From Oligoflexia bacterium (GTDB lineage: Bacteria > Bdellovibrionota > Bdellovibrionia > JABDDW01): a stretch of 16,309 bases of DNA. Shown here in pieces: positions 1 to 16,309 of this stretch. Location of the stretch: NCBI GenBank assembly GCA_043732305.1, contig JAYTHU010000050.1:1-16309 (forward strand), read 5' to 3'. The position numbers and the translations under genes are program-made. The stretch's first letter is position 1; each line of letters begins with the position of its first letter. Under the pieces are notes generated by a model. It was not told where the DNA came from and searched no databases. It was given only the letters and a program-made list of their open reading frames with translations.

Positions 1-119
1 AAATGCGCGTTGGTCTGGAATACGATCGCGTCAGCACTCATTACGTGGACAACGCCAATGTCACAAATACTTTTGCCGTCGACAATCGCGTGCAAGTCAG
101 TGGCTGGTTTCGGTTCTAA
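1..119 (+). CDS. 3' end of a probable outer-membrane beta-barrel protein (partial, runs off the left edge; not in the ORF track)
   Basis: The frame from base 3 reads MRVGLEYDRVSTHYVDNANVTNTFAVDNRVQVSGWFRF-stop (TAA 117-119). The alternating hydrophobic/polar strands and terminal W-F-R-F fit the C-terminal beta-signal of Gram-negative OMPs. Confidence 0.7.
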   Translation, partial: MRVGLEYDRVSTHYVDNANVTNTFAVDNRVQVSGWFRF

Positions 120-200
120 CACACTATGCTATTTTGATTGATTTTTCCCCTGGGGCTCGTGTATAAGAGCCTAATTAAATTTAACCAGGAGAAATTTCGA

Positions 201-899
201 ATGAGACTTTTATCTGTATTGGCGAGTATGCTTCTTGTCAGCACCTTGGCCTTCGGTGCAAGCACCAAAATTAAAAAAGTTAAAAGAACAATTAACGACG
301 ATGGTTCCGTAACCACAACAACAACAGAGTCGTCATCTAGACTTTCAATTTACAAAGCTCGTGACACCGAACGTTTCGTTCGACGTATCATGCCCACAAT
401 TGGTTTGAACATTGCTGACACCACCATTAAAACAAGTGGAATGCGCACTGGTTTTGGCTTTGGTGGACTAATGGATCTCTGGGGTCAGCATGAGTGGGTG
501 TTGGAGACTGGCGTTCTCTATCGCCAACTAGGAACTAGCAACCAAGGAACGACCTTGGCTCTGAATTACATTAACGTTCCTATTTCTGCGAAATATTATT
601 TCATGGGACAAAATTCTAACACTATTTATTTCAAAGGCGGAATTACCCCCGGTTTTAATGTGGCCGCTACACAATCCACTGACACTACCAGCACAAACGT
701 GAGTAAAGATGTCAACACCTTCGACGTAGGAGTCATTGTTGGGATTGGCGGCCGTTATCTACTTTCTGATTCTGCGAGCATATTTTTGGAAGGTAATTAC
801 AACCGCGGTTTGGCCAATGTTATGAATACAACTGACGGCGAATCTTCCGTAAATACTTTGGCGTTTGGCGTGATGACCGGAGTCAGTATCGAATTGTAG
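201..899 (+). CDS. Small outer-membrane beta-barrel protein (PorT/OmpA-like barrel, OMP_b-brl type), about 232 aa, with signal peptide
   Basis: Start moved from 138 to ATG 201 because AGGAGA (187-192) precedes it and MRLLSVLASMLLVSTLAFG is a signal peptide. Typical barrel strands follow: LETGVLYRQLG, LNYINVPISAKYY, FDVGVIVGIGGRY, IFLEGNYNRGL, GVMTGVSIEL. Confidence 0.8.
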   Translation: MRLLSVLASMLLVSTLAFGASTKIKKVKRTINDDGSVTTTTTESSSRLSIYKARDTERFVRRIMPTIGLNIADTTIKTSGMRTGFGFGGLMDLWGQHEWVLETGVLYRQLGTSNQGTTLALNYINVPISAKYYFMGQNSNTIYFKGGITPGFNVAATQSTDTTSTNVSKDVNTFDVGVIVGIGGRYLLSDSASIFLEGNYNRGLANVMNTTDGESSVNTLAFGVMTGVSIEL

Positions 900-938
900 C
901 GCTTAGCTGCGTCGCAGTAATTACAATATATTTTTGAT

Positions 939-968
939 AGGGCCCGCTGAAAAGTGGGCCTTCTTTTT
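939..968 (+). terminator. Rho-independent terminator
   Basis: AGGGCCCGCT-GAAA-AGTGGGCCTT stem-loop (two G-U pairs, GNRA loop) followed by CTTTTT, 40 nt after the OMP stop. Confidence 0.85.
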
Positions 969-1096
969 GAACTAAATTCTCACGGGCCATAAAAAAAATT
1001 CATGAAACGGGTATTTTCATTTTTCATCGCTCGTATCTATTGCTTTGATATTTTGTAAATCACAATGTGCTCGAAACCCTTGTCCCGTTTTGCAAA

Positions 1097-1113
1097 TCAG
1101 AGAGGCTCTCTGA
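1097..1113. promoter_or_regulatory. Perfect 8-bp inverted repeat; candidate enhancer-binding-protein site
   Basis: TCAGAGAG-G-CTCTCTGA, about 105-120 bp upstream of the sigma-54 element. The function is inferred from position only. Confidence 0.35.
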
Positions 1114-1218
1114 GGGGCAATCGCAGAGTGAGTCTTTAATATTAAACCTATAGATTTTTTTCCGGATCTTAAAATTACTGAGAACTTTTTTACATAGTAG
1201 GGCACCTTCAGGTCATCA

Positions 1219-1234
1219 GGGCACGCCCATTGCA
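1219..1234 (+). promoter_or_regulatory. Sigma-54 (RpoN) -24/-12 promoter
   Basis: GGGCACGCCCATTGCA versus consensus TGGCACG-N4-TTGCW. GG (1220-1221) and GC (1232-1233) are exactly 10 nt apart, and the element ends 35 nt before the ATG at 1270. Confidence 0.8.
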
Positions 1235-1269
1235 ATTAGGTATTTCAAACTAATACACGGGGTGGGAAA

Positions 1270-3813
1270 ATGCGTACAAATTTATTTGTAGTATTGCTAG
1301 TGGGATCTATTTGTTTAGGGGCGATTCAACCGGCAAATTCGGGAGAACTAACTCCGCACGATTTTAAAAAAATGTGCGGAGAATATCTCATGGATCTCGG
1401 AAGTGATTCGAAATCAAGTAAGAGTCAAAAACATGATTTGCGTACGGCTGCAATTGTCGAGGAACATCCGTTCAGTGTTCTCCTTGATCCAGAATTTGTG
1501 CGTGCGCATCCGCTCATGCTCATGAGTTCTGATCAAATGGCACTTGCCGCCATCAATATTGCTGGGGTTGAGGAAGTTCTTGATCCAATCACTGGTGCAA
1601 ATAAAGTGAAGCGATATAAGCTTTTCTCCGATGGTGGGGATCTCACCAGTGGTAGTCGAGTCGTTGGAGCTTTGGATACCATTCAAAGTTTAGTGAACGG
1701 ACTTGCCGCCGGGGCTTCTGGTCATGATTCCGGAAAGTCTTTGAAGATTGTCGTGGCAGGACCCGGAACTGGAAAATCAGTTCTTCTCACGACTATAAAC
1801 AATGCGCTTAAAAAATTGTCACTCACCGAACCTAAGATGTTTCAGTACACATTCGAAATGACCAACTTAGACAAAATCCCAGAGGTAAAAAATCTTTTTG
1901 ATCAAATTCGCGTGGAAGGATCTTCTACGCCAATGCGCTCTCAGATCAATGATTTTCCTTTCGCACTTTTGCCGGAATCTTTGCAGAAAGCATATGTCGA
2001 AAAGTTTACCCCCGAGGTGATTGCGCTTTGTGGATATCCTCCCATTGCAAAGTTTGAATCAGAAGGCCAAGCACGTCGTATTCGCGACATGATCATGATC
2101 CATTATTCTCGAACTGAAAATGCCGGAAAACCTCTTAGCATTGAGCAAGAACTCTACTATTTAAGTAAACACGTTGTGCTGAAACGTAATATTCCTGGCG
2201 ATGATGGCGGAAGTTTAATTCTGCCAGCGCAAGGAAAACAAATTGATACAACGGGATTATTCTTCAAGCAAAATCCACTAGCGATTGGACTTGAAGGTGC
2301 AAACGCTGTTTTTTCTTATGCAGCTACCGGGATTTTTCCAAGATCCAATAACCAAGTTTTCATCATGGATGAAGCTGGAAAATATCCCCCTGACTTGCAT
2401 GCTAAAATGCTCACGTTTACTCAAGACAAGACAATTCAAGAAGGTGGGTCTCCTACTCTATTTATCAATTCAACTTTGATTGCGGCAACCAACACCAAGG
2501 ACATTCAGCGATTGAAAGCGGAAGACCCTGACTCCGCTCTTTTGTCCCGCTCTTGGATGATCAATATGCCTTGGCACTTGGATCCAGTTCTGGAAGCAGA
2601 AACAATTGCTTACGGAATGAAAGATCTCATGATGCAAAAACTTGGAGATCCTAATGCTCCTATTTTGAAGGCTTCAGAACATTTGCAAGAACTTTTCCCT
2701 CATCACGTTTTTGGACATGAAGCGGTGACATCTGATGGAAGATATCGCCTTTGGGTTGGAAGTGGTGAGAGCCGTGTAGAAATCAGTCCAAAAGCTTTGT
2801 TGTTTGCGGGGGCTGTTCCTGCTCTGACTCGTCAGTTTTTCATCACTCAAGAGGAGCTAGAAGCTGAAAATAATCAAGTAGCAAAAAATTATCCATTCCT
2901 GACTAAGCCTTTGTTGAATGACCGAGTTGCTAGACTCCGCGCTTGGATCGGTCTCACGCCTGTCGATCAGCAAATTGCAATTTCTTACAAGCGTCTAAGT
3001 GCAAAGCACAAAGAAGGGTCCTTTGGTTTTGGCAACAGAGACTCCAGTCGCTGGTTTGAAGCGGCCATTGCGCGAGCAAGAATGCCCGGCGGTGGAAAAA
3101 GTGTGACCGTAGGCCTGCTTGATAAAACTCTCGGTGAAATCACAATCGATCATCCATTAACAGATATTGTTAAAGACGATGACGGAAAAGATCGGTATTC
3201 GAAAACTTTCTTGGTTGGAATGATTAAGCTTTCAGATTTGTTAAAAACTCAGGTCTTCATTCCGCAAATGAAGAAAGATGTGATGAGTGCAATTGTTCTC
3301 GATCAAGATGAATCCATCAAAGATATCTATCGGGACGTGATTCAAGCACTGGCTGCAAAAGGTGCAAACCCAAGTGCTCAAGAGTTTTCAGACGTTATTT
3401 CTGGAACAACTAAGCCTATCATTGAAGGACAGTTGACTGAGATTCGCGTGATCTATGCAGAACAAAATGGGGGACGCGGGCTTTCTGCTGAGGAAATAAA
3501 TAACTGGCATGTTATTTTTGGATTGAGCGAAAGAAACAACGGTTTTGCTATAGATCCCAAACATGCACTGAACCAGTCATTGCTTTCTGCCGTTGCTCAA
3601 TATCATGCAAATCAAATGGCTGCGGCGTGGGCTACAACTGTTGATCGGTTGCTCCGAGTGGCGACAGGAAAACAGACGGGCACCCCTGATGAAATTCAAA
3701 TGGCTACCGATATGATTCGCAAACTGAAACTCAATCTTGGTTATAGCGAGCAAAGCATAAAGGAAGTTCTCCAAGTCATGCTCGTGGACGCTAACACCAA
3801 ACGCGGAAAGTGA
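1270..3813 (+). CDS. prkA: Divergent PrkA/YeaG-family AAA+ ATPase (annotated as a serine protein kinase family), 847 aa, with N-terminal signal peptide
   Basis: Walker A AGPGTGKS (1756-1779), Walker B VFIMDE (2356-2373) and ALLSR arginine finger (R at 2548). PrkA-like blocks occur in family order: KRYKLF, FSY..G.F.RSN, LHAKMLTFTQD, LIAATN, INMPWHL...E, ISPKAL....ALTR, EGSFGFGNR, GYSEQSIKEVL. A SpoVR/YeaH gene lies in the same operon. Confidence 0.85.
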   Translation: MRTNLFVVLLVGSICLGAIQPANSGELTPHDFKKMCGEYLMDLGSDSKSSKSQKHDLRTAAIVEEHPFSVLLDPEFVRAHPLMLMSSDQMALAAINIAGVEEVLDPITGANKVKRYKLFSDGGDLTSGSRVVGALDTIQSLVNGLAAGASGHDSGKSLKIVVAGPGTGKSVLLTTINNALKKLSLTEPKMFQYTFEMTNLDKIPEVKNLFDQIRVEGSSTPMRSQINDFPFALLPESLQKAYVEKFTPEVIALCGYPPIAKFESEGQARRIRDMIMIHYSRTENAGKPLSIEQELYYLSKHVVLKRNIPGDDGGSLILPAQGKQIDTTGLFFKQNPLAIGLEGANAVFSYAATGIFPRSNNQVFIMDEAGKYPPDLHAKMLTFTQDKTIQEGGSPTLFINSTLIAATNTKDIQRLKAEDPDSALLSRSWMINMPWHLDPVLEAETIAYGMKDLMMQKLGDPNAPILKASEHLQELFPHHVFGHEAVTSDGRYRLWVGSGESRVEISPKALLFAGAVPALTRQFFITQEELEAENNQVAKNYPFLTKPLLNDRVARLRAWIGLTPVDQQIAISYKRLSAKHKEGSFGFGNRDSSRWFEAAIARARMPGGGKSVTVGLLDKTLGEITIDHPLTDIVKDDDGKDRYSKTFLVGMIKLSDLLKTQVFIPQMKKDVMSAIVLDQDESIKDIYRDVIQALAAKGANPSAQEFSDVISGTTKPIIEGQLTEIRVIYAEQNGGRGLSAEEINNWHVIFGLSERNNGFAIDPKHALNQSLLSAVAQYHANQMAAAWATTVDRLLRVATGKQTGTPDEIQMATDMIRKLKLNLGYSEQSIKEVLQVMLVDANTKRGK

Positions 3814-3830
3814 TCGGCAGGTAGTATAAA

Positions 3831-6800
3831 ATGCGATTGATTTTTTTAGTTTTTGCTCTTGTTTTTGTAATCACTGGCTCTGGACTGAATTCCGCTTGGG
3901 CAAATCGCGAAGAGACGAGTGGAAGTCCTTATCTGGTAGTCGTGGAAGATCAGCAAGGACAGTCAAGTCGCAAACCTGGAATTTATAAACGTGACAGCAC
4001 AGGCAAGTGGCTTCCTCTGATCATGGGAAAAGTCAGTTCCCTGAGTGCTGTTGGACAATATTACTTGCCTCTCGAAAATTTTAAAAAGAATCTCAGGTTC
4101 GATTCTCTGGCTATAGTTGACAGGCGAGTTCATATTTTTAATATCAACAGTGAAATGTCTGTTAGTAGTTCAATTCTAATCTTAGATGGCTCTAGTGGCC
4201 AAGGTCACATGCAGGTCCTTGACCCACTTACCTCTCAGAGTATTGAAGTTCCGCTTATCAATACCCCTCAAGAATTTGCATTCACAAGTGTTCCTCTGCA
4301 ATTTATTGTCAGCAAATTAGATAAAATTGGTGAAGTGCTTCTTTTGTCTATTCACAGCCCCCATTTACACGGAGATGGTGTGACCTTTCCGGTATTTTTA
4401 GGCGAGCATGAGACACCCTCGAGCGCTCCAAAGGTAGTAAATGCTTCTCATTTATTAGAAGGTAAATTTCGAGATGGAATCCAGTTGTCTCGACGCATTT
4501 TAGGAAGTGAGAAAAGCCGGACTCCCACTGGGTATTTGAGCCAGCAAGTCATCAACCAGTACGCTAGGGTGCTTCCTGGTGATGGACCAGAAATAGAGTC
4601 CTGGAGAAACAATGTCCATGCTAAGGGCGAAAATATCTTCAACTTACCTCCTTCTGAATATCGTGAATTGCCTCAAGTCAGCATATTCAACGGCGAAACT
4701 GTAACTCCTAAAATTCCCACACTCGTTCTTGCTAAGTATCCCGATGTTGAGATCAGATACATTTGGGACCCAAAGGGTCTTCTCTCTGGGGTTTACGTAG
4801 TTCCAAGCACCGGTGATACCAATTTTGGTTTTATCCTTAGTAACGTCGTTCAGCACAAATGCTTGTTTCTTGGAAATATTTCGCATGATTCTTTGGGCTT
4901 TTCTAAAAATGTCTATGCCGAAATCGGAATTTACTCGTTTACAGATGATGTAGGTGGAATTCATTTGATCCAGGCGCCTAGCAAATCTGAACCTGCGATC
5001 GTGAATTTGAAACCTCCTTCAGATCTTGAAGTGATCGAAAAAAGTTTTCATATTGATCGTGAAGATCAAAACATTATTGCTTCATGGGGATATAAAAACG
5101 GTTCCTCTAGCACATATCTTTACCATTACATTCTAAGTGTCCCAGAATCGTATATCAAGATCATTAGCATGACTGAGATATCTAGAAAATATTTCAACTA
5201 CGCCAATCTGCTTTTTCGCACGTCAAGGCACAACGGTAAGACCTATTTTGATACGGATACACCGGCCCTTGATACTAAAGCGACTTACGCCTTAGCTCAT
5301 GACTTGAGTTCATCTCATGTGGATTTAGAAGAAAGCGCTAAACATAATACCTTGATATTAAAGTCCTTGCGCGCCACAAAACAAACGGTCTTACTTGAAA
5401 GCTTAAAATATCTTGAATACCAAAATGTTAAATCTAGCATCACTATGAGTGGGATTTATGAAGCCAGTGACGAAAAACAGTTGGTTAGCACACAGGTTCT
5501 GGAACCAATTCATATTCCTCTCTACATTCCTGGAACTTTTGTTTTGCAAAAGAAAAGAATCGTTCTTCTGAAGCAAAATATTCCGACTTCCATAGACATG
5601 GCGATTGTTCTTTCTGACGCCTCTCGAATGAATGGACAGAGTAATTTTCAAGCGAATCTCCTTCTGGCGAGTAAAGGTAAAGTTTTTTTGGCAAAACTCG
5701 CGACCATCGATTATCCTCTGGCATCTTTAGAAGATATAGAGATCCACGTCCCCTTCTTTAATAACGCCACCTCCGACCAAATGCTCGCTTACGTAAAAAT
5801 TAAAGATCAGGGTGTATTCCCCATTCCCTTCACGGTCTCGAAAGATGAATCTTTAGAAGCTAGATTCACTCAGACTATTTTAAATAGAGATTCCTTCAAG
5901 TTGTTTTCTGGCCAATCAATAGCTTCCAAAGCAAATATTTTATCTCGATTGAGATATGATAAGAACGGTGCGATTTATTGGGTGCTTACTGGCGAAGTCT
6001 CCGATTCTGAACCAGGCTTTACGATCAGAAATTTAATTACAGGCGAAACTGTCAATCATCACAACATGAAAATTTCTTTGTTTCAAGCAGGCAAGCCTGT
6101 GGAATCAAACACTGGAGCTTCATCCTGGCGCTACTATGTTCCTGATTTAAAAGATCCGGTTGGTTCCAGTCAGAGATACAAAACTGATTTGTTTTCCAAT
6201 TTTAAAAATCTTCTTGAGGACATGGCTGATCCCCGAAAACCACCGCAACGTGTGGTTATGATTGTGCCCGAAGATATCAAGCAATATGCAGCAAGTTACC
6301 CGCTAGCGCTTTATTTAAAGCATCATGATCGAAGTGCGCAATGGAGCCGAGACAGTTCCGGCATGAAGCTTTTTGTTCCTCGTGATAACTATTTTTCGCA
6401 AGAGGATGTTCTGCAAAATTTCTCAGTGATGGAGCAGAATGAAATTGCCGGCAGGTCTCGTTCTTTTTTCTACGGTGTCCTTTCGCATTTTTCACAAAAA
6501 GCAAAGCCTGAGCCGAAGAATCCGGAAGATGAAAAAACATTTACTATTCTAGAGCCCAAACTCTCGGAAAATATGTTTGACGAGGCTTCTGCCGATGGAA
6601 AAGTAGTCACCGATAATTCTGATAAAGTAAACCCTCACTTTTTGTATCTGCTTGTGACGGAAGGTCATCATGTGCCTATAGAAAAATTTGTGGCGCAGAA
6701 ATGGGATCATCCCAAAATTTCATCTCTCATCATTGCTACAAAAGAAGAGTGGGACGCCTATATAACCAAAGAGTCTTTTGAAGATAAGCTTAACCTTAAA

Positions 6801-9245
6801 CAATATTTCCGTGTAGAGACTCTTCAAGCACCCACAATTCCAGTTCGTGAACAGTATGTGAAAGAATTATTGGCTCGAAAAGAGATTCAAGCTTTTGGGT
6901 ACCATATTGATGTTTCCGACATAACCAATAAAGTCATTGCAGATCAAGACCAAGCGCGTGAAGTTTTGGCGAGATACTTTGTAAAACGTGCAGACACTTT
7001 AGCTGAAGAAAATCAGGAACCGTCTTTTGAAGGTTTTGTAAAAGCTGTCGGAATTCTCACTAAAGAATTACAAAAGAACACTGCTTTGAGAGCGTCGCTT
7101 AAAATCGACCGCGCAGTGATTCAGCAGTTGTTGTCCAAAGGTTTCACCATGACCCTGAACCCAGATCTTCTGGGACCTGATGATTTTCATAAAAAATTAG
7201 CCGATCCTCAAGCCGCTTGGAAATGGCAACAAAAAGGTTACGCCGGTCCGATTAAATTTAAAGAACAGATGATCAATATCATGCGCGGACAATTAAATCC
7301 GAGTAGCACACAAAATGTGGCTAGTACTTTTATATTGAATGGTGAATCTGGGACTGGGAAAACGCAGGCCATTAGGAGCTTCTTTGTAGATTTCTTGGGT
7401 CTCAAAGAATACAACATCAAGGCTCGAGATTTCACCTTAGGAGACGGCCGGACGGCAAATGCGGAAGCAGGTATTTTCATTCTGCATTGTCCTAGTATCG
7501 CAGATCCAAATATTCAGAGAATTCCAACCACGAATAAAAGTTCAACCATCATTTTAGATGAAGCTTTGCGGCATATTGATTTGTTTTTCACATCCGTTCA
7601 CGGTCAGCGCGGTGTTTTAATTCTAGATGACATTCATGATGCCAACAATTCCGTAAAGGAAGCGCTGCTGAAACGCGTTCGTTCTATTTTAGATCAAAAG
7701 ACAATCGAAGCTGTTTCTGCCGAAGGTGGGGAGCTCGTGACTGTTCCCACTCGTAATATCACGATTGGACTCACCATGAACTTCAAGCCAGATAAAGACA
7801 TGATTAAAAAAGTAGCTAAAAACGAGGTCAGTCCCACTAGGGATGAGTTGATTTTAGCAACGCTTTCCACACCTCACGCGATCTTGGACGATTCCTTTTT
7901 AAAGCGAATCACAGCCATTGTTCCCATGGACATTCATCCTAAAGATGCCAAGGGTCCGCAACTGACGCTTGAACTTGCAAATGTAGCTCGCCGTGGTTTT
8001 TTGAACAATCAAGTTCTGACTTTTGTGAGTCAGGATGTGATCACTACTTTAGTCGACAAATTTCCAACTACTGATGTGCGTACCTTTATGGATCCCGCAG
8101 AGAAAAATCTTTTGCAAACCAGCAGAAGCACGGGAAATCTATTTGTTACAGTTTCGAAAATCTCCCCTCACCAAACGTCTTCGAGTGGGGATGGACCAAG
8201 AGAAAAAATTGCCCATTACATTAAAGACAATACAGAAAAAGTTTCTATAGAAAATACCTTACGCGGAAAAATAGAGTTCATGCGTTACATGATTGATGGT
8301 TCAAGAAAAGTAATTTTTGAATCGATTTTAAAAAGCTTAAACGAAAACCCTGCCTACGCTGCTGGACCAGTGAACCAAAAAAATCTTGGAGCACCTGCAG
8401 CTAAAGCCATTCATGACCATTTATTGACGATTCCTTCTTTGCCGATTGAAGAGATGAATCTCAACCCTTCGCTGCTTCAGGTCAATAGTTTCCATGAGAA
8501 GAATCAATTTCGCTCGATTTTAAAATCAATCATTGAATCCCAGCGAGCGACAATGGGTTTTTCGATTCCACACATGGGTGCTTTTATTTCAGATGGATTA
8601 TTGGGAGATTCGAATTGGGATTCTGAGGATGATGGAATGTCACAGCGCACGCGTTTGAAGGTCGCTCAAGAGACCATGGAAAAAATCAAACCTGTTACTG
8701 TAAAAGTGATGGCGGAGATGTTGCGAGTTAAGTCTTTGGAAAAATATCCAGAACCAGAGAAATGGATAGAAAGTCTCAATAAATCGGATCCTGCATTTTT
8801 GATGAGAGACGCTGGAACCGCAATGACCGAGGCCCTTTCGGAATATATTATTGAGATGTATGGGGCGATGGTTAAAGAAAACCATGCAGAAAGTTTAAAT
8901 CCCGGCATTCCAAAAATGTCTACTTACGATAGTGTTCGGATATTTGCCTTAGCTGTCGACAAGGTTCTCGCGCAAATGCCTTGGGAAAACATGACGAGCT
9001 TCATGATTAAAAATCTCAACTTTGCTGTCGATAATTTGGACATGGGTCACGCCTCTGCACTTCAGTATCTTTTGTTTGAAAGTAAATTTTCTCTTCTCAA
9101 TGGAAAACATTTGAGCTTGGTTACAGGTCATGCGCAAGTCATGCCTTTCATTGAACAGCAAGAATCAGTGGAGAGAACATTGCACAAAAGATTTACAACT
9201 CACTGTGATGTCATTCTCTCAGGTCTTTCCCGAGGTAGCTTATGA
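3831..9245 (+). CDS. Giant (1804 aa) signal-peptide protein with an unknown N-terminal region and a ClpA/ClpB-like AAA+ C-terminal half
   Basis: Signal peptide MRLIFLVFALVFVITGSGLNSAWA. FILNGESGTGKT P-loop (GESGTGKT at 7341-7364). GVLILDDIHDANNSVKEALL, TVPTRNITIGLTMN and DSFLKRITAIVPM resemble the Clp NBD2 motifs [34 protein letters not shown] and PEFLNRIDEVVVF. Starts 17 nt after the prkA stop. Confidence 0.75.
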   Translation: MRLIFLVFALVFVITGSGLNSAWANREETSGSPYLVVVEDQQGQSSRKPGIYKRDSTGKWLPLIMGKVSSLSAVGQYYLPLENFKKNLRFDSLAIVDRRVHIFNINSEMSVSSSILILDGSSGQGHMQVLDPLTSQSIEVPLINTPQEFAFTSVPLQFIVSKLDKIGEVLLLSIHSPHLHGDGVTFPVFLGEHETPSSAPKVVNASHLLEGKFRDGIQLSRRILGSEKSRTPTGYLSQQVINQYARVLPGDGPEIESWRNNVHAKGENIFNLPPSEYRELPQVSIFNGETVTPKIPTLVLAKYPDVEIRYIWDPKGLLSGVYVVPSTGDTNFGFILSNVVQHKCLFLGNISHDSLGFSKNVYAEIGIYSFTDDVGGIHLIQAPSKSEPAIVNLKPPSDLEVIEKSFHIDREDQNIIASWGYKNGSSSTYLYHYILSVPESYIKIISMTEISRKYFNYANLLFRTSRHNGKTYFDTDTPALDTKATYALAHDLSSSHVDLEESAKHNTLILKSLRATKQTVLLESLKYLEYQNVKSSITMSGIYEASDEKQLVSTQVLEPIHIPLYIPGTFVLQKKRIVLLKQNIPTSIDMAIVLSDASRMNGQSNFQANLLLASKGKVFLAKLATIDYPLASLEDIEIHVPFFNNATSDQMLAYVKIKDQGVFPIPFTVSKDESLEARFTQTILNRDSFKLFSGQSIASKANILSRLRYDKNGAIYWVLTGEVSDSEPGFTIRNLITGETVNHHNMKISLFQAGKPVESNTGASSWRYYVPDLKDPVGSSQRYKTDLFSNFKNLLEDMADPRKPPQRVVMIVPEDIKQYAASYPLALYLKHHDRSAQWSRDSSGMKLFVPRDNYFSQEDVLQNFSVMEQNEIAGRSRSFFYGVLSHFSQKAKPEPKNPEDEKTFTILEPKLSENMFDEASADGKVVTDNSDKVNPHFLYLLVTEGHHVPIEKFVAQKWDHPKISSLIIATKEEWDAYITKESFEDKLNLKQYFRVETLQAPTIPVREQYVKELLARKEIQAFGYHIDVSDITNKVIADQDQAREVLARYFVKRADTLAEENQEPSFEGFVKAVGILTKELQKNTALRASLKIDRAVIQQLLSKGFTMTLNPDLLGPDDFHKKLADPQAAWKWQQKGYAGPIKFKEQMINIMRGQLNPSSTQNVASTFILNGESGTGKTQAIRSFFVDFLGLKEYNIKARDFTLGDGRTANAEAGIFILHCPSIADPNIQRIPTTNKSSTIILDEALRHIDLFFTSVHGQRGVLILDDIHDANNSVKEALLKRVRSILDQKTIEAVSAEGGELVTVPTRNITIGLTMNFKPDKDMIKKVAKNEVSPTRDELILATLSTPHAILDDSFLKRITAIVPMDIHPKDAKGPQLTLELANVARRGFLNNQVLTFVSQDVITTLVDKFPTTDVRTFMDPAEKNLLQTSRSTGNLFVTVSKISPHQTSSSGDGPREKIAHYIKDNTEKVSIENTLRGKIEFMRYMIDGSRKVIFESILKSLNENPAYAAGPVNQKNLGAPAAKAIHDHLLTIPSLPIEEMNLNPSLLQVNSFHEKNQFRSILKSIIESQRATMGFSIPHMGAFISDGLLGDSNWDSEDDGMSQRTRLKVAQETMEKIKPVTVKVMAEMLRVKSLEKYPEPEKWIESLNKSDPAFLMRDAGTAMTEALSEYIIEMYGAMVKENHAESLNPGIPKMSTYDSVRIFALAVDKVLAQMPWENMTSFMIKNLNFAVDNLDMGHASALQYLLFESKFSLLNGKHLSLVTGHAQVMPFIEQQESVERTLHKRFTTHCDVILSGLSRGSL

Positions 9246-12200
9246 AAAAATTATTGTTAATAATTATGCTTCTTTTAGGTTCAATTCTTCACGCTGAAGA
9301 AGATCAAGGCGCATATTTAGGAAACAAATGCGCGCGCGTCCTCGGGTGCCTTGGCAGTTGCGGGGGACATCCAAAGATTATTCAAATTGCAAGCGGCGAA
9401 GACACCGATACTTTTCAGCAGAGTGTTGCCGACGCAAAAATCATTTACGGTATTTCTAATAAGCTTAATTATTTCATACCCGACAATATCATTCGTCACG
9501 CTACCGGTATTGAGATGGCGGCTGTCGCAAGTGTAGGTGGGCATCCAGCACCGGTTTGGTCATCTGGAGCAAAACTTGTCGCAGGAGTTGGCGGCACCAT
9601 GGGAGTTTACGAAGTTGTTTTTCCCGGCCGAAGTTTTCATGATCAGTACATTCGCTCGGGGAATTCTGTTCATGACAATAGAACTGTATTTCCTCATGTT
9701 GCTGGTCACTATCATTTTGCGGTCAAGCATCCAGTTTCTCGCATAAGAGATTTGGATCAGATCGGTGACACCGAAAAATTAGCGGAATACATGAGTGAGA
9801 TAAAACTTAAAGTGAATGAGAGTGAATATTCTGATTGGTATCACCGTTTAGAAACTCTCTCTTATTTGCAAGATCTATCTCGCGGTTCTTATTACCCTCC
9901 ATCACATTTTGAACCAAGTAAGACGACTGAATTTTCCACTGAGAGTTCGGAGGATAAGGTAAATCCTTTGTCTCCTACTAGTTCAGTTATGCAGGCGTTG
10001 GTGGCAAATTTACCCGCTACTACCCCAGGCTGGAAAGTGAACATGGCGCAACTTTACGAGAAAACTGTAAAGATTATTGGCTCCTACACACAAACCAAAG
10101 TGATGAACGAAGGCTTTGCTGTTTTATCCCAATACTTACATCTGAAGCATGCGCCTGCCGATTGGCGAACGAGTGCTGATGCTGCTGAATTCGCGCAAAT
10201 CAATTCTGGGGTAGTATTCCCAAAGTTGAATAATCCCTACTGGCTTGGAGTTGAAGCTTGGAGAATTCACTACGCTCAATTTAAAAATAAAATGGCATCA
10301 CTAAATCTTTCAGATTTAGATTTGGACGCTCGTTTCGTGACTGAAATCGTAGATCCTATTTTAGAGTCAGGTTACAACGATTACACTTTTGTGCGTGCAA
10401 CCTTTAACGAAAAATGGGTAGAGAAACATAAATTATTTCTCTATAAATCAGAAATTCAAGGGCATGAAGAAGTTAAGATTGTGGTAACCCAAGACCCCCA
10501 ACGCATTGTGAATTCGTTTTCTCAGATGTTTAATAAAGACATTCACTTTGCTCGTATTGAACTTGTGAATCTCAATGAAAATAGAACTGGAACGGTGCTG
10601 CTGAGACACACGCCTGCGTATGGCATTCCCTTGAAATTAAGTTCCATGGCTCCAGCGCTTTATCAAGTGGCAAGATTCATGAAAGCTCCCATAAAATTAG
10701 AAACCATTTGGACAGCTATGTGGTTTCAAAGCAAAGGCAATTCCAAAGCGAGTCCTCAGGAGACGGGGCCGATGTCTGTTCAAGTGGATGCTTCTGGAAA
10801 AGTTCAGCTGAATTTATTTAGTGAAAAAATTCCCCCTGAAGTTCAAAAATCTCTGAGAGATTTTTTTCAGAGTTCTGTCGACGAATTTAAAAAAGACTTG
10901 ACCCTCTCTTATGGTAGTCAGCCTCTGCCTTTAGATGTGGCATCAATGAAAGCCGGCTCAGATCACGAAGCTCCCATCACTGGTGTGGACAGTTCGCTCC
11001 TTGGACATATGCCCACGACCACGCCCGCTATTTTAGAATTTATTAAGATGCGCGATCGAAGATTTCTGATTGCAGCTAAAGCCGCAATACGTGGCGAAAC
11101 CAAAAATGCTTTTAGCGCTAGCGGTGTTGTCGTAAAAGTTCTTCCAGACACTCCTATGCTCGAAAACGACACTCGCATTATTGGTGTCAGAAAAAGTTTT
11201 CGACAAAATAATCTTGGTCCGGCATCGATGATGACTCACTTTGGTGGAACCATGGCGCAGACGATCCCCGATGAAGATATGGATATTTCAGCAGGTGACA
11301 AATTGCCTGGCGATATCTTAGATCGCAAACCCGCTGGTGGTGGCGGCGGGAGTGGGCCGGGAGATGGTAATGGAGACGCGGATAAAGAGAGCGGCAAAGG
11401 TGCCAGCGGTGGTGAAGCCGATCCTCAGATGGAAGAAATTCCACAAGGTCTATATGGAAAAATGCTCGCCGAAGATATTGAAATTAGAAATCTGCGGCGC
11501 ACTTCGCAGAAGGACATCGACACTAAATCTTTTATTAAAGAAGGCGATGTTCGCAGGGCAAGCAATGATGTGAACTGGCCCAAAACTTCTGCTTCCGCTT
11601 ATGAAATGGGCTTGGTCATGCAGAAGCGTGAGAACATGAAACTTCCTGAAGGTCAGAAAAAGAAACGAACAAATCTTGAGCTGATCAGGTTCGGTTATAA
11701 ATTTCTGCCACAAAATCAATACACATCGCCTTCGCTCGATATTCAATTCGAGCCAAGTTATAGTGTCGTATTGATGGTGCTGGCCGATGTGTCTGGCAGT
11801 ATGAGCAAAGAGCATAAAGAAGCTATGAGGCGCGCAATATACAATGAAGTGGCTGCGCTCGAGGCGGCTCATAAAAAAGTCACAGTTCGATATTATCATT
11901 ACAGCCAAGGTGCTAAAGAAGTTTCTGTTAAAGAGTTTTATACTAAGTCAGAAGGGTCTTCAACGGACACCGCTGCCGGCATTACACTGGTAGCATCAGA
12001 TTTAGAAAAGGACCATCCGCGAGATAAAATCAATCGGGTTGTCAGTATTTTCTCTGATGGTGACGATAGTACTCCTGATGCATCTGCAGCATTGGGCGCA
12101 GCCCTTGCGGAGAAGGTTGATTTTCTGACGTATGCCAACATTGATCCAGAGGGCAAAAAAGTGGGCCCACTTTCTGAATCCTTTGAAGCCCTGAGCAAAC

Positions 12201-12292
12201 GTTCACCAGACAAAGTGGGATATGCTAACATCAGCGCCGATCCTGCGACTGTCTATCGCGCAATCAAGAATTGGTTTGGAAAACGTAACTAA
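9242..12292 (+). CDS. SpoVR(YcgB)-YeaH(YhbH/DUF444, vWA) fusion protein, 1016 aa, with signal peptide
   Basis: SpoVR motifs: YEVV, HVAGHYHF (9695-9718), QTKVMNEGFA (10091-10120), NPYWLG (10232-10249), YNDYTFV. YeaH motifs: RDRRFL, GDILDRKPAGGGGGSG, LAEDIEIRNL, DVSGSM MIDAS (11786-11803), AKEV..KEFY..SEG..T, SDGDD (12053-12067). ATGA overlap with the upstream stop and a GAGGT RBS (9232-9236). Confidence 0.85.
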   Translation: MKKLLLIIMLLLGSILHAEEDQGAYLGNKCARVLGCLGSCGGHPKIIQIASGEDTDTFQQSVADAKIIYGISNKLNYFIPDNIIRHATGIEMAAVASVGGHPAPVWSSGAKLVAGVGGTMGVYEVVFPGRSFHDQYIRSGNSVHDNRTVFPHVAGHYHFAVKHPVSRIRDLDQIGDTEKLAEYMSEIKLKVNESEYSDWYHRLETLSYLQDLSRGSYYPPSHFEPSKTTEFSTESSEDKVNPLSPTSSVMQALVANLPATTPGWKVNMAQLYEKTVKIIGSYTQTKVMNEGFAVLSQYLHLKHAPADWRTSADAAEFAQINSGVVFPKLNNPYWLGVEAWRIHYAQFKNKMASLNLSDLDLDARFVTEIVDPILESGYNDYTFVRATFNEKWVEKHKLFLYKSEIQGHEEVKIVVTQDPQRIVNSFSQMFNKDIHFARIELVNLNENRTGTVLLRHTPAYGIPLKLSSMAPALYQVARFMKAPIKLETIWTAMWFQSKGNSKASPQETGPMSVQVDASGKVQLNLFSEKIPPEVQKSLRDFFQSSVDEFKKDLTLSYGSQPLPLDVASMKAGSDHEAPITGVDSSLLGHMPTTTPAILEFIKMRDRRFLIAAKAAIRGETKNAFSASGVVVKVLPDTPMLENDTRIIGVRKSFRQNNLGPASMMTHFGGTMAQTIPDEDMDISAGDKLPGDILDRKPAGGGGGSGPGDGNGDADKESGKGASGGEADPQMEEIPQGLYGKMLAEDIEIRNLRRTSQKDIDTKSFIKEGDVRRASNDVNWPKTSASAYEMGLVMQKRENMKLPEGQKKKRTNLELIRFGYKFLPQNQYTSPSLDIQFEPSYSVVLMVLADVSGSMSKEHKEAMRRAIYNEVAALEAAHKKVTVRYYHYSQGAKEVSVKEFYTKSEGSSTDTAAGITLVASDLEKDHPRDKINRVVSIFSDGDDSTPDASAALGAALAEKVDFLTYANIDPEGKKVGPLSESFEALSKRSPDKVGYANISADPATVYRAIKNWFGKRN

Positions 12293-12324
12293 TCGAGCGA
12301 AGCTTAGTCTAAATAAATATTGTT

Positions 12325-12364
12325 AAGAAAAAGAAAGCCCCGCTTTTCAGCAGGGCTTTTTTTT
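12325..12364. terminator. Bidirectional rho-independent terminator between convergent genes
   Basis: A-rich tract, AAAGCCCCGCT-TTTC-AGCAGGGCTTT hairpin, then a T8 run. Lies between the stop at 12292 (+) and the stop at 12390 (-). Confidence 0.9.
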
Positions 12365-12389
12365 ACCAGTTTATTTTGTCTAGCGGTGC

Positions 12390-12971
12390 TTAGTGTTTTG
12401 CGCCGAGGTAATTCTTCACGCCTTCGGGAGTGGCTTTCATTGTTGAGCTGCCTTTTTTCCAGTTTGCGGGACAGACTTCGCCAGTTTTAGCAGAAGTTTG
12501 AAAAGCTTCAACCACGCGTAGAATTTCTTCCACGTTGCGGCCTACGCCTAAGTTATGAACAGTGATGTAATCGATTTTTCCTTCGGGATTGATCAAGAAA
12601 AGTCCGCGAAGGGCGATTCCAGCAGGGAGCAAAACTCCGTAGTCGCGCGCTACATCTTTGGTTAAATCGGCAAGTAAGGGGTATCGTAATTTTCCAATGC
12701 CACCATCTTTGGGTGCGGTGTTCATCCATGCGCGGTGAGTGTGTTCGCTATCGACTGAACAGCCAACAACTTCAGCGCCGAGAGCTTTGAACTTATCCAA
12801 ATTTTCGTCGAATGCGAGAATTTCTGTCGGACACACGAAAGTGAAATCCAAGGGATAGAAAAATAGAACCAGCCATTTGCCTTTGTAATCGTTGAGCGAA
12901 ATTTCTTTTACTTCGCCAGCGATAACGGCTTTGCCTTTAAAAAACGGTGCAGGTTGTTGTACTTGTGCCAT
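12390..12971 (-). CDS. ahpC: Typical 2-Cys peroxiredoxin (AhpC/Prx1 family)
   Basis: FFYPLDFTFVCPTE (peroxidatic Cys), GRNVEEILR and GEVCPANW (resolving Cys). AAGGAG RBS upstream. Confidence 0.95.
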   Translation of the reverse strand: MAQVQQPAPFFKGKAVIAGEVKEISLNDYKGKWLVLFFYPLDFTFVCPTEILAFDENLDKFKALGAEVVGCSVDSEHTHRAWMNTAPKDGGIGKLRYPLLADLTKDVARDYGVLLPAGIALRGLFLINPEGKIDYITVHNLGVGRNVEEILRVVEAFQTSAKTGEVCPANWKKGSSTMKATPEGVKNYLGAKH

Positions 12972-13009
12972 GAAATGGGGCTCCTTCTTAAAGTTAATTT
13001 GAGGTTAAT

Positions 13010-14422
13010 CTATGCCAGATCTGGCCTTGAGAGCAATCTGTCTTTTCTGTCGTTTAGACTGTTTGCCGATCGGTTGGCCAGCCGAATCCAATAAGCAAAA
13101 AGTGTGGATGCTACAATTGCCAATCCCAAGGCTAGGCCTGTCCATAGACCTTTGAGACCCCAATTTTCTTTGAAGCAAAGCCATGCTCCTATGGGAAGGC
13201 CAAAAATCCAGAAGGCAATGAGATTTGCAACAGCTGGAATTCTTGTTTCTCCGAGTCCTCGCATCGCTCCGGTGCAAATGACTTGAATGCCATCTGCCAC
13301 TTGAAATATCGCGGCTAAGATAATGATTTTAGAAGCCAATTTTATGACGTCAAGATCAGTGGTGAAAATTCCAATAATATGAGAGCCCCATGTTGAAAGT
13401 AAGATTCCTGAGCAAACCATAAAACAGAAAGACAAAATAAAGGCTGCATAGCCTGCTTGGAAACTTCGTTCAGAATCTTTTTCGCCCAAATAATAAGCCA
13501 CCCGAATTGCCGCGGCCATGGAAATTCCCAGTGGGATCATAAATGTGAAGCTCGCGATATTCAGAACGATAGAATGAGCTGCTAAGCTGACTGCCCCAAG
13601 TTTTGAGGCAAGGCCAGTGGAGAGCGAGAATACACCGACTTCGAAAAGCATCTGCAAAGCAGCTGGAGTTCCAAGCAAGAAAAGTTTTTTAAAGTAACTA
13701 TAGTCTATCCTCCAAGAGTGGTGACTGGGCGCTTTGTTTTTTCCTGAGAATGAAAAATAAATCAAGGCCACCGTCATGAGAACTCGATTGATCAAAGTGG
13801 ACAGCGCCGAACCCGGAATTCCCATTTCTGGAAAACCAAATTTTCCATTTATAAAAACCCAGTTCATCCCCAAATTAGAAATATTGGCGGTAACCATCAC
13901 CCATGTCACCCATTTGGAATATCCTGTGGCTTGGAGATATTGTCTGAGGGCGATGAACATCAAGAATGGAGTGAGCGACAAATTATAAATCTGAAGAAAT
14001 GATCTTGTTCCTACGGCAATAATGTTGGGGACGCCAAACATTGTTAGATGATCTGCGATGTAATAATTCAGTATCGTGAGTGGCACGCTTATGATGATTG
14101 CCATGTAGAAACCTTGGAGCTTCCAACGATGGGCTTCTTCAAGATTCCCGCTCCCCAAGTTAGATGCGATAAAAAAATCTAATCCAGAAAGTAGGCCTAA
14201 AGAAAATATTGAAAATATAAAAAATATCGAAGTGCCTAGGGTGACACTCCCTATGGCTACCGCACTAATTTTCCCCACCATGAATGAATCCACTAGTCCC
14301 ATGAGCATCTGCCCAGCTTGCGTAATAATAATTGGGACCGCTAGCACCATCATTGGTTTAATTTGTTCTTTTACCGTTTTCACTTTTTTGCTTTCAATAA
14401 AAATTTTAAAGGCACCAATCAC
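13010..14422 (-). CDS. MATE family multidrug efflux transporter (NorM-like)
   Basis: About 12 hydrophobic segments and the motifs LAVPIIITQ...MGLVDSFMVG, LGTPAALQMLFEVGVF, LAAHSI and FQVADGIQV...GAMRG. GTG start with a GAGGG RBS. Confidence 0.93.
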   Translation of the reverse strand: MIGAFKIFIESKKVKTVKEQIKPMMVLAVPIIITQAGQMLMGLVDSFMVGKISAVAIGSVTLGTSIFFIFSIFSLGLLSGLDFFIASNLGSGNLEEAHRWKLQGFYMAIIISVPLTILNYYIADHLTMFGVPNIIAVGTRSFLQIYNLSLTPFLMFIALRQYLQATGYSKWVTWVMVTANISNLGMNWVFINGKFGFPEMGIPGSALSTLINRVLMTVALIYFSFSGKNKAPSHHSWRIDYSYFKKLFLLGTPAALQMLFEVGVFSLSTGLASKLGAVSLAAHSIVLNIASFTFMIPLGISMAAAIRVAYYLGEKDSERSFQAGYAAFILSFCFMVCSGILLSTWGSHIIGIFTTDLDVIKLASKIIILAAIFQVADGIQVICTGAMRGLGETRIPAVANLIAFWIFGLPIGAWLCFKENWGLKGLWTGLALGLAIVASTLFAYWIRLANRSANSLNDRKDRLLSRPDLA

Positions 14423-14451
14423 TTTCCCTCACTCGTCGACACATCGGCTCG

Positions 14452-15105
14452 CTAGCCACTAGCAAATGCGGGATACTTTCTGTTTGTTCCTTTAAAGCGG
14501 CTATTTCTATTTTTATATGGAACAAGTCCCCAAGCCTCTAAAATATTTTTATCAATGTATTGGCAAAGCGATTTAAATTCATTTCCCCATTCTACAATTC
14601 GGGTGAATGGTCGCTTGTCCCAAAAATCTGCTCCAGCTGTTTTAATAACTACGGGCTTCTCAAAAATCTCCCCATTTGCCTGACCTGGATTGTTCCCGCT
14701 AGCATCTTCAATGTTTTTCTTATCGGTCGAGGCGGTTTTCCCGCGTTCGATTCCTAACATTTCTCTTGCGACCAGGCCAGAAATGGAACGAATAAATTTA
14801 TTGAATGCCACCCGCGAACTAGGAAGCACAATGAGATGGAAGTGGTTGCCTGTATTAGCAAATCTGTAAATTTTAACGCCACTTTGTTTTGCCTGCTTAA
14901 AGAACAGTTCTTTGAGTTTCTTTTCTTTTTTCAGAAATGAAATTTGCCCTTTTGCTTTTAAGGATCTCATCACTAAGTGCATAGCTCTTTTGGTTGCAAT
15001 CGGACGCTTGACCTTTGCATGGCTATTCTTCAGATAGGCCCCTCCAAAAACTTTGGGCGCTTTATTGTTAAATTCTTCGATTTTAAACTGCTTTTGTCGA
15101 GGCAT
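14452..15105 (-). CDS. Y1/HUH tyrosine transposase-like protein (IS200/RAYT superfamily)
   Basis: NHFHLIV HUH motif (HFH at 14836-14844), an upstream H-L-V-M-R strand, FWDKRPFTRIV and the catalytic-Tyr helix YIDKN (Tyr 14557-14559). GGAG RBS at 15112-15115. No IS ends identified. Confidence 0.8.
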   Translation of the reverse strand: MPRQKQFKIEEFNNKAPKVFGGAYLKNSHAKVKRPIATKRAMHLVMRSLKAKGQISFLKKEKKLKELFFKQAKQSGVKIYRFANTGNHFHLIVLPSSRVAFNKFIRSISGLVAREMLGIERGKTASTDKKNIEDASGNNPGQANGEIFEKPVVIKTAGADFWDKRPFTRIVEWGNEFKSLCQYIDKNILEAWGLVPYKNRNSRFKGTNRKYPAFASG

Positions 15106-15490
15106 TTAGCACTCCAGGTGGACTAATCATGACGTCGTTGGCATTACATAAAATGAATTTACCATCTTTGGTAGCGATGTCAATTTGATACATTTATTGC
15201 TAATTTTATTAGCGCGATGAATTGTCTTTTTTTGCGCGAGGATGGAAGGTTATTGAACGGAAATTTATATGTGAATTGAGCTCGACGGATCTGGGCTTGG
15301 TGTTTGCTTACCGCAAAGCAAAGGGGTGCTAAAAAATTAACTTTGGAAGTAAGGCAATGTGCAGAATAAAATTGATACTCGGTTTTGGCACAAGAGGCGA
15401 TTTAATCCGTATAGAATCGATCCCGTTGGAACCAAACTCGTGCCGGATCTCATCCACGCAAAAAATCTTTATCTTAGCGATGAGGACCTT

Positions 15491-16024
15491 TTAAACTTTT
15501 AGGATTCTGCCTAAGGTGCACATGATTACGCCCAAGCTAAGGGTAAAGCTCATAAAGATTGCGAGTCTCATCCACTGGCCAACGGATTGTAGAAACTGAT
15601 AGTCGAGGAAATCTGGACCGAACATATTGGAGCCTAGCCAGCAAAGAAAACCTAAAACAAAAGTGTAGAAAAGCATTCGGCCAAAGGCGTTGGCTTTTGT
15701 CATTTTGCCAACCATGAACCCACACAGAGAGGCGCAGGCGAAATGCACAATGGCTCCAACTAAGAACACGGAGGTTGGAGCAGAGAGAAGGAAAGCTTTT
15801 CCTCCAAAAACGGCAGAAGCCGTAAGCTGCAACCACCACAGTTTTCCAGCGGTTTCAACTTGGAATAAACTCGAAACAAAAATCATAACCACGCCGGCTA
15901 ATAGTCCGGAGAAAATCCCTACGCCCACTCGCTTGAGACTAGGATGCAAGAAAGAATCAAGAAGCACAGTTCCTTGACCATTGTCATCATTAGCTGCCAT
16001 TGCGTTAGTTGCGTCAGTAGACAT
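15491..16024 (-). CDS. Small integral membrane protein, about 177 aa, 4-5 TM segments, function unknown
   Basis: Start moved from 16141 to ATG 16024 because AGGAG (16036-16032) precedes it and the longer ORF would overlap the divergent gene. Hydrophobic helices include GIFSGLLAGVVM, VGAIVHFACASLCG and FVLGFLCW. Confidence 0.75.
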   Translation of the reverse strand: MSTDATNAMAANDDNGQGTVLLDSFLHPSLKRVGVGIFSGLLAGVVMIFVSSLFQVETAGKLWWLQLTASAVFGGKAFLLSAPTSVFLVGAIVHFACASLCGFMVGKMTKANAFGRMLFYTFVLGFLCWLGSNMFGPDFLDYQFLQSVGQWMRLAIFMSFTLSLGVIMCTLGRILKV

Positions 16025-16089
16025 TTTTTCACTCCTGTTTTGTCGAAATTTAAATAGATAGTAAAGGTTCCGTCCATTAAGATCAAGGT

Positions 16090-16309
16090 ATGAATTCAGC
16101 AAAAATAACGCAAAGTGAGCAAGCCAAAATAGGTGCGGCAATAAACACCAAATTCACCGATCTCATGGGCTGTGAATATCCTATCATTGCAGGCCCAATG
16201 TTTTTGGTAAGCAATGTTCAGTTGGTTACCGAGGTTTCTAATGCGGGAGGGGTCGGTGGCGTTCCTACTTTAAATTGGAGAACCACTGTCGCTTTCGATG
16301 CTGCTATGG
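16090..16309 (+). CDS. 5' end of a nitronate monooxygenase / FabK-like FMN oxidoreductase (partial, runs off the right edge; not in the ORF track)
   Basis: Reads MNSAKITQSEQAKIGAAINTKFTDLMGCEYPIIAGPMFLVSNVQLVTEVSNAGGVGGVPTLNWRT. The T.F...G..YPII..PM and VSNAGG.G motifs mark the family. The exact start codon is uncertain. Confidence 0.85.
   Translation, partial: MNSAKITQSEQAKIGAAINTKFTDLMGCEYPIIAGPMFLVSNVQLVTEVSNAGGVGGVPTLNWRTTVAFDAAM

Follow-up and report, generated by a model that had tools for sequence, protein, structure and literature searches.

The DNA analysed here, called the window, is a stretch of 16,309 nt from an Oligoflexia bacterium (GCA_043732305.1, contig JAYTHU010000050.1, positions 1 to 16,309 of the forward strand). 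It carries an operon encoding a PrkA-like AAA+ ATPase, a giant AAA+ protein and a protein in which a SpoVR domain is followed in the same chain by YeaH, a protein with a von Willebrand factor A (vWA) domain (Table 1). An earlier note on this stretch, written without database searches, had described the last of these genes as an uninterrupted frame passing from a SpoVR-like region into a complete YeaH-like region, and the frame and the profile comparisons given below returned the same picture. The gene encodes a single intact chain, a whole SpoVR domain joined to a whole YeaH vWA domain. The same genome, which is 98.4% complete, contains an ordinary yeaH adjoining an ordinary spoVR on contig C164 and a prkA on contig C91, and the fusion is an extra copy beside this ordinary yeaH-spoVR pair.

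One chain with two near-complete halves

Relatives of the fusion were collected by a search of 1.84 billion representatives, which gave 129 proteins at E <= 1e-30; out of 151 proteins collected in all, the 113 with a length of 940-1300 aa were taken as the full-length set, clustered at 50% identity. Pfam assigned SpoVR (PF04293, 44.5 bits, cut-off 27) and then DUF444 (PF04285, 67.5 bits, cut-off 27) along the chain, so the profile search for both families that had been proposed earlier left neither half unassigned. In hhalign, with which the fusion-family alignment was compared profile to profile with the canonical alignments, residues 56-493 matched canonical SpoVR 3-475 of 509 (probability 100, 425 columns) and residues 598-1016 matched canonical YeaH 10-367 of 367 (probability 100), the N-terminal helix, the Gly-rich loop and the vWA domain all being found in the latter. 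By these alignments, both halves are near-complete and collinear with canonical SpoVR and YeaH. The Gly-rich loop and the metal ion-dependent adhesion site (MIDAS) lie where the earlier note had placed them, and D849, S/T851, S853 and D939 of the MIDAS are kept in 113/113 relatives and T908 in 105/113. Because the SpoVR half scored 33.9 bits against the cut-off of 679 of the NCBIfam equivalog model (NF008737), it is best classed as a divergent paralogue rather than an equivalog; the YeaH half is also far under its equivalog cut-off (62 vs 468 bits). The linker between the halves ranges from 83 to 206 residues among the 113 relatives (median 110), with conserved positions at V515, G519, P591 and A596. 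An internal start at 11048 could be ruled out: as had been noted, no AGGAG-type or other Shine-Dalgarno-like site lies upstream of it, Met603 is unconserved (Arg is the commonest residue at this position) and the YeaH homology begins earlier.

That the fusion is an assembly artefact had been raised as the reading that would overturn it. Logan contigs from two runs, possibly of the source sample, are identical to the window, and those of both runs break within 10754-10809 with none spanning the junction; no RNA run is listed among the runs containing this stretch. While the read-level part of the proposed check thus leaves a break, at the level of the family the junction is crossed by homologues. 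The 113 full-length relatives include it, most of the 36 matching genomes have it as single frames of about 1000-1230 aa, a protein named from an Oligoflexia metagenome-assembled genome (P0002) is 37% identical to the fusion over 99% of its length, and the conserved V515 and G519 adjoin the contig break itself. The architecture is also already present in automatic databases, as an Atlas cluster of 60 members of which 100% have both Pfam families. Because independent homologues align across the junction, the join is accepted as real; on this sequence evidence the artefact reading is refuted at the family level, and its probability is close to nil.

Members of the fusion clade share 20-38% identity with the query, and all 113 full-length relatives have the key residues of the SpoVR half and of the YeaH half. 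The fusion was found in 6 of 40 relative genomes (in pieces in one of them, G005). A sample of 400 genomes of the phylum had it in 36, across many families; two genomes (G058 and G078) hold two divergent copies each (L128, L129, L138). The 80 matches listed for named loci comprise at least eight fusions and at least 72 canonical loci. Six of the fusions among these matches are labelled Bacteriovoracaceae, Bacteriovoracia, Bdellovibrionales, Bdellovibrionaceae or Oligoflexia and two are unclassified, and one fusion protein record carries the label Bradymonadales. The canonical loci among the same matches bear out the earlier statement that yeaH usually precedes spoVR, this being the order at 52 of the 53 loci showing both genes; the sole exception (L061) is an over-extended call of an open reading frame (ORF), in which the SpoVR homology starts downstream of yeaH. 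The order within the fusion chain is reversed relative to the canonical one. Partial matches were found in two phage and three plasmid records, none with a coverage above 33%, and a Ralstonia jumbo phage (MG752970.1, 21911-22687, hit H1) encodes a SpoVR-like protein. DUF2201_N was found in 0 of the 151 genomes searched.

In the trees of each half, all fusions (40/40) were monophyletic (support 1.0) and sat at the end of a long stem; the depth of their clade was about 2.6 times that of the 47 canonical sequences sampled, and the distances in the SpoVR half and the YeaH half correlate (Spearman 0.67). In this biased sample, with a single E. coli outgroup, the YeaH half was placed with the canonical set of delta type (0.989), the SpoVR half had no firm position (0.758), and the trees name no donor. 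They indicate that the fusion arose once, in a fast-evolving clade of paralogues predicted to be exported.

Predicted folds and a putative metal site

Modelled alone, the SpoVR half reached a predicted local distance difference test score (pLDDT) of 94.5. When this model was compared with 48,161 chains, almost all of the best 50 rows, inspected by their titles, were zincin-fold proteins, a family assignment that is in part our own assumption. The best row was the DUF885-type protein 3o0y (Z 12.5, root mean square deviation (rmsd) 3.5, 189 aligned); the M1 aminopeptidases 8sw0 (Z 11.4, rmsd 3.8, 184 aligned), 3cia (Z 11.2, 3.9, 189) and LTA4H 5fwq (Z 11.2, 4.1, 189) were also present, with thermolysin (Z 9.5), oligopeptidase F, M32 and ACE in further rows. 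The TFIID chains 6hqa and 5fur, which we take to have an inactive aminopeptidase fold, were among the structural matches as well. A sequence search of solved structures with the SpoVR half returned nothing credible (best E 0.5). From the structural comparison, the SpoVR half is predicted to have a gluzincin metallopeptidase fold, which is new here.

H152, H156 and E290, which are invariant together with E124 and Y333 and like them also present in canonical SpoVR, are predicted to be zincin-type metal ligands. E124 precedes the first His by 28 residues, compared with 29-31 for the Glu of the GxMEN motif in three M1 enzymes of the same genome. The words NEGFA and NEGWA around E290 occur in two M1 enzymes of this genome, and Y333 presumably has the role of the M1-type Tyr. 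A CxxC pair lies directly after E124, at fusion residues 128-137, in 50/113 relatives; the fusion of the window is without it, its only cysteines being residues 30, 36 and 40.

The model of the whole chain had a pLDDT of 86.8 and a predicted template modelling score (pTM) of 0.83, and both fold searches with it were filled by vWA domains. In these the vWA domain reached Z 17.9 (rmsd 2.8, 166 aligned), and midasin (6qta) was matched over the model range 622-1016 with Z 15.1 (rmsd 3.6, 192 aligned); the sequence search of solved structures gave weak vWA stretches only (best E 0.0013). Had the halves, of about 500 and 420 residues, been placed independently of each other, a pTM lower than 0.83 would be expected; the SpoVR and YeaH halves are therefore probably packed in a fixed arrangement.

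The operon and its predicted export features

The PrkA-like protein matches canonical PrkA with an hhalign probability of 99.9, and its conserved residues include K169 of Walker A (33/33), D367 (29/33) and E368 (31/33) of Walker B, R427 (33/33) and C36 (32/33). In the giant protein K1177, D1266 and D1267 are kept in 30/30 and C1792 in 29/30; residues 1157-1370 align with the second ATPase module of the Clp-type protein from the same genome (probability 94.8), and an Atlas search with its residues 25-760 found nothing above 0.76. Counted by hand, the 45 mapped regions less two duplicates and one without the fusion leave 42 fusion loci, among which 31 have both partners, three have the PrkA-like gene directly before the fusion and no giant (L038, L111, L119), five show part of the giant, two end at a contig edge and one is broken. 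The PrkA-like gene is adjacent in 34 of the 42, seven of the other eight being incompletely seen and one being the broken operon. Because the giant is absent from some operons and the PrkA-like gene is kept, the operon core is PrkA plus the fusion, that is, the canonical three-part module. At the broken locus (L028, in genome G005) the giant is in three ORFs and the fusion in two with a piece on another contig, through decay or assembly error, and there is no PrkA-like gene within the adjacent 37 kb. At another locus (L036:597-3173) the PrkA-like gene is oriented divergently from the giant and fusion genes, being encoded on the other strand. Two PrkA-profile matches elsewhere in the genome (C62 and C102) were rejected as paralogues of the PrkA-like gene of the window, as they gave no phmmer match and are ORFs of about 810 aa, which we take to be Lon-type.

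The linkage, at 34/42 distinct loci, of a vWA gene to an AAA+ ATPase with intact Walker motifs, together with the vWA fold, agrees with the AAA+/vWA adaptor logic that the earlier note had proposed by analogy with MoxR systems. Its further claim, that the fusion is Rosetta-stone evidence for SpoVR and YeaH acting as one complex with PrkA, is plausible and weaker than stated: contact between the halves is read from a single-chain model, the functional link had already been published, and because the fusion arose once in a clade predicted to be exported, its existence may owe as much to co-export as to binding. The note had missed the extra copy beside the canonical operon, the predicted zincin fold of the SpoVR half and the operon-wide export features.

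According to an in-house heuristic, a signal-type h-region is present in 97/113 fusions, 32/33 PrkA-like proteins and 27/30 giants, compared with 0/47, 0/47 and 0/39 in the canonical controls SpoVR, YeaH and PrkA, and none of the h-region-bearing proteins of the operon has an acidic N-terminus. Among the 97 fusions, a basic n-region was found in 84 and small residues at -3/-1 in 88, the charge at the mature start had a median of -1, and lipoprotein and Tat signals were ruled out (lipobox in 1, Tat motif in 0). As scored by the heuristic, this is the pattern of a Sec signal cleaved by signal peptidase I, and such a signal is predicted for the fusion of the window, to which a single signal peptide had been ascribed before. 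The proteins are also poor in cysteine, which makes up 0.05% of the YeaH half, 0.08% of the body of either ATPase and 0.34% of the SpoVR half (much of the latter being the one CxxC), against 0.65-1.08% in the canonical proteins, a depletion of about tenfold in three of the four regions compared.

A CxxxL tag follows the signal peptide in the fusion and in the PrkA-like protein (C36) and stands at the C-terminus of the giant (C1792). Of the 332 proteins in the genome that passed the strict signal-peptide criteria, 39 have Cxxx[LF] after the predicted cleavage site vs 2 in the control, a window 100 residues further on, and the same post-signal test for the other 19 residues gave ratios of 0.46-1.18; this strict test replaced an earlier loose count (151 vs 68 of 1045). 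Tagged genes are clustered, for example five in a row on contig C31, and many are without a Pfam family (L141, L142, L146, L149, L151). Among 33 signal-bearing proteins picked by hand, a selection that gives no rate, 18 are without a Pfam family. The tag is carried, among others, by two MoxR-like ATPases, two C1 peptidases, a transglutaminase-like protein and an ATP-grasp protein that scored over the cut-off; it is missing from three AAA+ proteins that had been selected for their Walker A motif. The signal-bearing and CxxxL-tagged MoxR-like ATPases (bpMoxR over the cut-off) lie at L141:1-5249 and L142:4-4371, each adjoining a large tagged partner, one of them transglutaminase-like, and these pairs look like further AAA+ modules predicted to be exported. 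AAA+ proteins with signal-like N-termini and no N-terminal CxxxL were also seen (L146:12345-15293, L157:4-2652, L158:1-1158), two of them Clp-like. The whole operon carries predicted export features, and the CxxxL tag points to a putative sorting step, undescribed so far, in predatory bacteria.

On the flanks, an outer-membrane beta-barrel gene (138-899) lies directly upstream of the operon, and no BLAST match to it was found among the flanking ORFs of six related loci. An IS200-like Y1 transposase gene is located at 14452-15105. The hairpins flanking the operon, at 939-962 and downstream of the fusion gene, share the loop-region sequence GCTGAAAAG, and the downstream one is followed by a T run on the + strand too. 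Promoter and terminator counts are at chance level (12 terminator-like sites in the region vs 11.7 by chance).

Table 1. Features of the operon and of the fusion protein, in positions of the window
Feature	Position	Strand	Remarks
PrkA-like AAA+ ATPase, signal-peptide-bearing	1270..3813	+	847 aa; CxxxL at C36; AAA_PrkA 31.7 bits (cut-off 25)
Giant AAA+ protein, signal-peptide-bearing	3831..9245	+	1804 aa; CxxxL C-terminal; overlaps fusion start by 4 nt
SpoVR-YeaH fusion gene	9242..12292	+	single stop-free frame, 1016 aa (P0001)
Predicted Sec signal peptide, residues 1-18	9242..9295	+	basic start, hydrophobic core, Ala18; cleavage site by eye
Post-signal CxxxL tag, C30-L34	9329..9343	+	C30 in 97/113
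SpoVR domain, residues 56-493	9407..10720	+	predicted gluzincin fold
E124	9611..9613	+	invariant (113/113); M1 GxMEN-like spacing to first His
H152-V-x-G-H156	9695..9709	+	predicted metal ligands; H152, H156 in 113/113
N-E290-G	10106..10114	+	predicted third metal ligand; E290 in 113/113
Y333 in PYxxG	10238..10240	+	113/113; resembles M1 YxKG Tyr
Structured linker, residues 494-597	10721..11032	+	hairpin, helix and conserved HAP-like motif (whole-chain model)
YeaH/DUF444 half, residues 598-1016	11033..12289	+	vWA domain at end; profile and fold matches
Gly/acidic flexible loop, residues 697-724	11330..11413	+	pLDDT <50; canonical YeaH has same loop
MIDAS D849-x-S851-x-S853, T908, D939	11786..12058	+	conserved in relatives
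Terminator-like hairpin	12334..12359	.	between operon and convergent peroxiredoxin gene; listed on - strand

Proposed function and known counterparts

We propose, with moderate confidence, that the fusion is the exported metallopeptidase-plus-adaptor subunit of a PrkA-type AAA+ machine, which would work most likely inside an ATP-containing prey compartment. All subunits would cross the inner membrane by Sec, and the CxxxL tag would serve a second step of export or docking. The PrkA-like ring could then engage the vWA/MIDAS domain in the manner of MoxR-type ATPases and their vWA partners, and ATP hydrolysis would remodel the chain or a client, after which the zincin site would cut or modify the peptide, with E124 either replacing the missing HExxH glutamate or gripping the substrate N-terminus. 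Joined in one chain, the pair would stay a 1:1 unit throughout export, and the giant Clp-like ATPase would be an accessory subunit. ATP is probably needed because the ATPase motifs are retained, and, the periplasm being held to lack ATP, the prey would be the likeliest workplace. Other signal-bearing enzymes of cytoplasmic type in the same genome (two MoxR-like, an ATP-grasp and two Clp-like) speak for the proposal. A bolder version holds that a complete ATP-driven machine, consisting of the PrkA ring, the giant Clp-like ATPase and the zincin-vWA fusion, is sent by some Bdellovibrionota into the prey cytoplasm via Sec and then a step addressed by CxxxL, which dozens of further exported proteins would share, and that the canonical module, long read as kinase signalling, is an AAA+-vWA-zincin machine for remodelling and proteolysis with an unusual HVxGH active site; this could be so, and we offer it tentatively.

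Several observations weigh against the proposed exported metallopeptidase. For helical proteins the tool advises caution below a Z of about 13, and the scores here are 11-12.5; a Foldseek search with the SpoVR model found no match at E <= 0.001, its weak top rows being ACE and collagenase. The signal peptides were scored by a heuristic that is not a trained predictor. In a 2026 study, purified PrkA of B. anthracis had, by itself, negligible activity as a kinase or a protease (PMC13001217). The fusion was found in 0 of the 56 genomes of one family (f2), presumed to be Bdellovibrionaceae, and the module is therefore not needed for predation in general. The Glu position of HExxH is occupied by Val in 106, Thr in 3, Ala in 2, Leu in 1 and Tyr in 1 of the 113 relatives and by Glu in none, and H156 and E290 are 134 residues apart, against about 19 in two M1 enzymes with both motifs; because of this missing Glu and this spacing, the HVxGH site may be non-catalytic. 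The protein would then still be exported with its ATPases, and SpoVR would be a non-catalytic zincin fold, serving a signalling or chaperone module as a scaffold that binds metal or peptide, an idea that the TFIID chains among the structural matches and the framing of the canonical module as kinase signalling in the literature seen would also suit. We regard it as rather unlikely, since the three metal ligands, E124 and Y333 have all stayed invariant in spite of such low identity within the clade and are shared with canonical SpoVR, as would suit a functional active site.

The destination can be read differently as well. Sec-type signals and cysteine depletion indicate passage into an oxidising compartment at most, not delivery to prey, so that export could lead only to the predator's own periplasm or surface, where the machine would act on the predator's own envelope or secreted proteins, in maturation or quality control, with leaked or scavenged nucleotide. 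The vWA structural matches, which are mostly extracellular proteins, would agree with this, as would the absence of recurring secretion genes beside the operon in the ORF maps, in which the flanks in other genomes are unannotated. However, two ATPases have retained Walker A/B and the arginine finger though the periplasm is held to be ATP-free, and CxxxL marks a distinct subset of the exported proteins that includes some cytoplasm-type enzymes; a machine confined to the own envelope therefore seems improbable, if far from negligible. The ATP problem would disappear altogether if the hydrophobic N-termini were uncleaved anchors or vestiges and the machine stayed on the cytoplasmic side of the predator membrane, but the basic n-regions, the small -3/-1 residues and the neutral-to-acidic mature start fit the topology of a cleaved Sec signal, and with about tenfold cysteine depletion in most of the regions compared, we consider such retention very improbable.

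The value of the proposed exported machine lies in an active-site hypothesis for SpoVR and in the predicted export features, unexpected for an ATP-dependent machine. SpoVR/YcgB and YeaH are conserved in lineages as far apart as E. coli, Bacillus and haloarchaea, and the fusion, its model and the invariant residues provide a testable hypothesis for the canonical module, namely that a zincin site is coupled through a MIDAS adaptor to an AAA+ ring. In the literature searched, which lies outside most subscription journals, no paper on this fusion, its export or the CxxxL tag was found, and a prior report of the SpoVR fold may exist in those journals. By co-fitness in six bacteria, yeaG/prkA, yeaH and ycgB/spoVR act together, and the same 2016 source states that the biochemical function of SpoVR was wholly unknown (10.1101/072470); computational links for the module are older (PMC2686479), and a 2026 preprint still terms yeaH and ycgB uncharacterised (10.64898/2026.07.20.739708). 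B. bacteriovorus carries the canonical operon (PMC5430801) and has type I, type II, Sec and Tat systems (PMC12622784).

Compared with the canonical PrkA/YeaG (PF08298)-YeaH/YhbH (PF04285)-YcgB/SpoVR (PF04293) module, all three components of the operon are homologous over nearly their full length, and the invariant SpoVR and MIDAS residues are the same. The canonical module is cytoplasmic, with separate genes, yeaH first and no signal, whereas the fusion is a single chain whose halves stand in reversed order, joined by some 110 linker residues, in an operon with predicted signal peptides, the CxxxL tag, few cysteines and usually an inserted giant AAA+ gene. With the gluzincins (M1, DUF885, thermolysin and ACE), the SpoVR half shares the predicted fold over about 185 residues (Z 9-12.5) and, as judged from the genome's own M1 enzymes, HxxxH with NEG[FW]A, a Glu a comparable distance upstream, and YxxG; it differs in having HVxGH instead of HExxH and in the long distance to the third ligand. 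In AAA+/vWA-MIDAS systems such as NorQ-NorD and midasin (Rea1/MDN1) the vWA domain likewise has an intact MIDAS, and both NorD and midasin are among the structural matches, in rows tied with or below generic vWA domains and therefore of no special kinship; these systems are intracellular and unfused to SpoVR. RavA-ViaA and CbbQ-CbbO are further AAA+/vWA adaptor systems. A close parallel in domain logic is found in jumbo phages, which encode a MoxR AAA+ ATPase together with a vWA co-chaperone whose N-terminal fusion partner is a metallopeptidase (PMC7824862). There too the metallopeptidase comes first and the vWA domain last, beside an AAA+ ATPase, whereas here the ATPase is PrkA-type, SpoVR is without HExxH and signal peptides are predicted. 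Because the jumbo-phage protein has the same order, the reversed order of the fusion looks like a recurring architecture.

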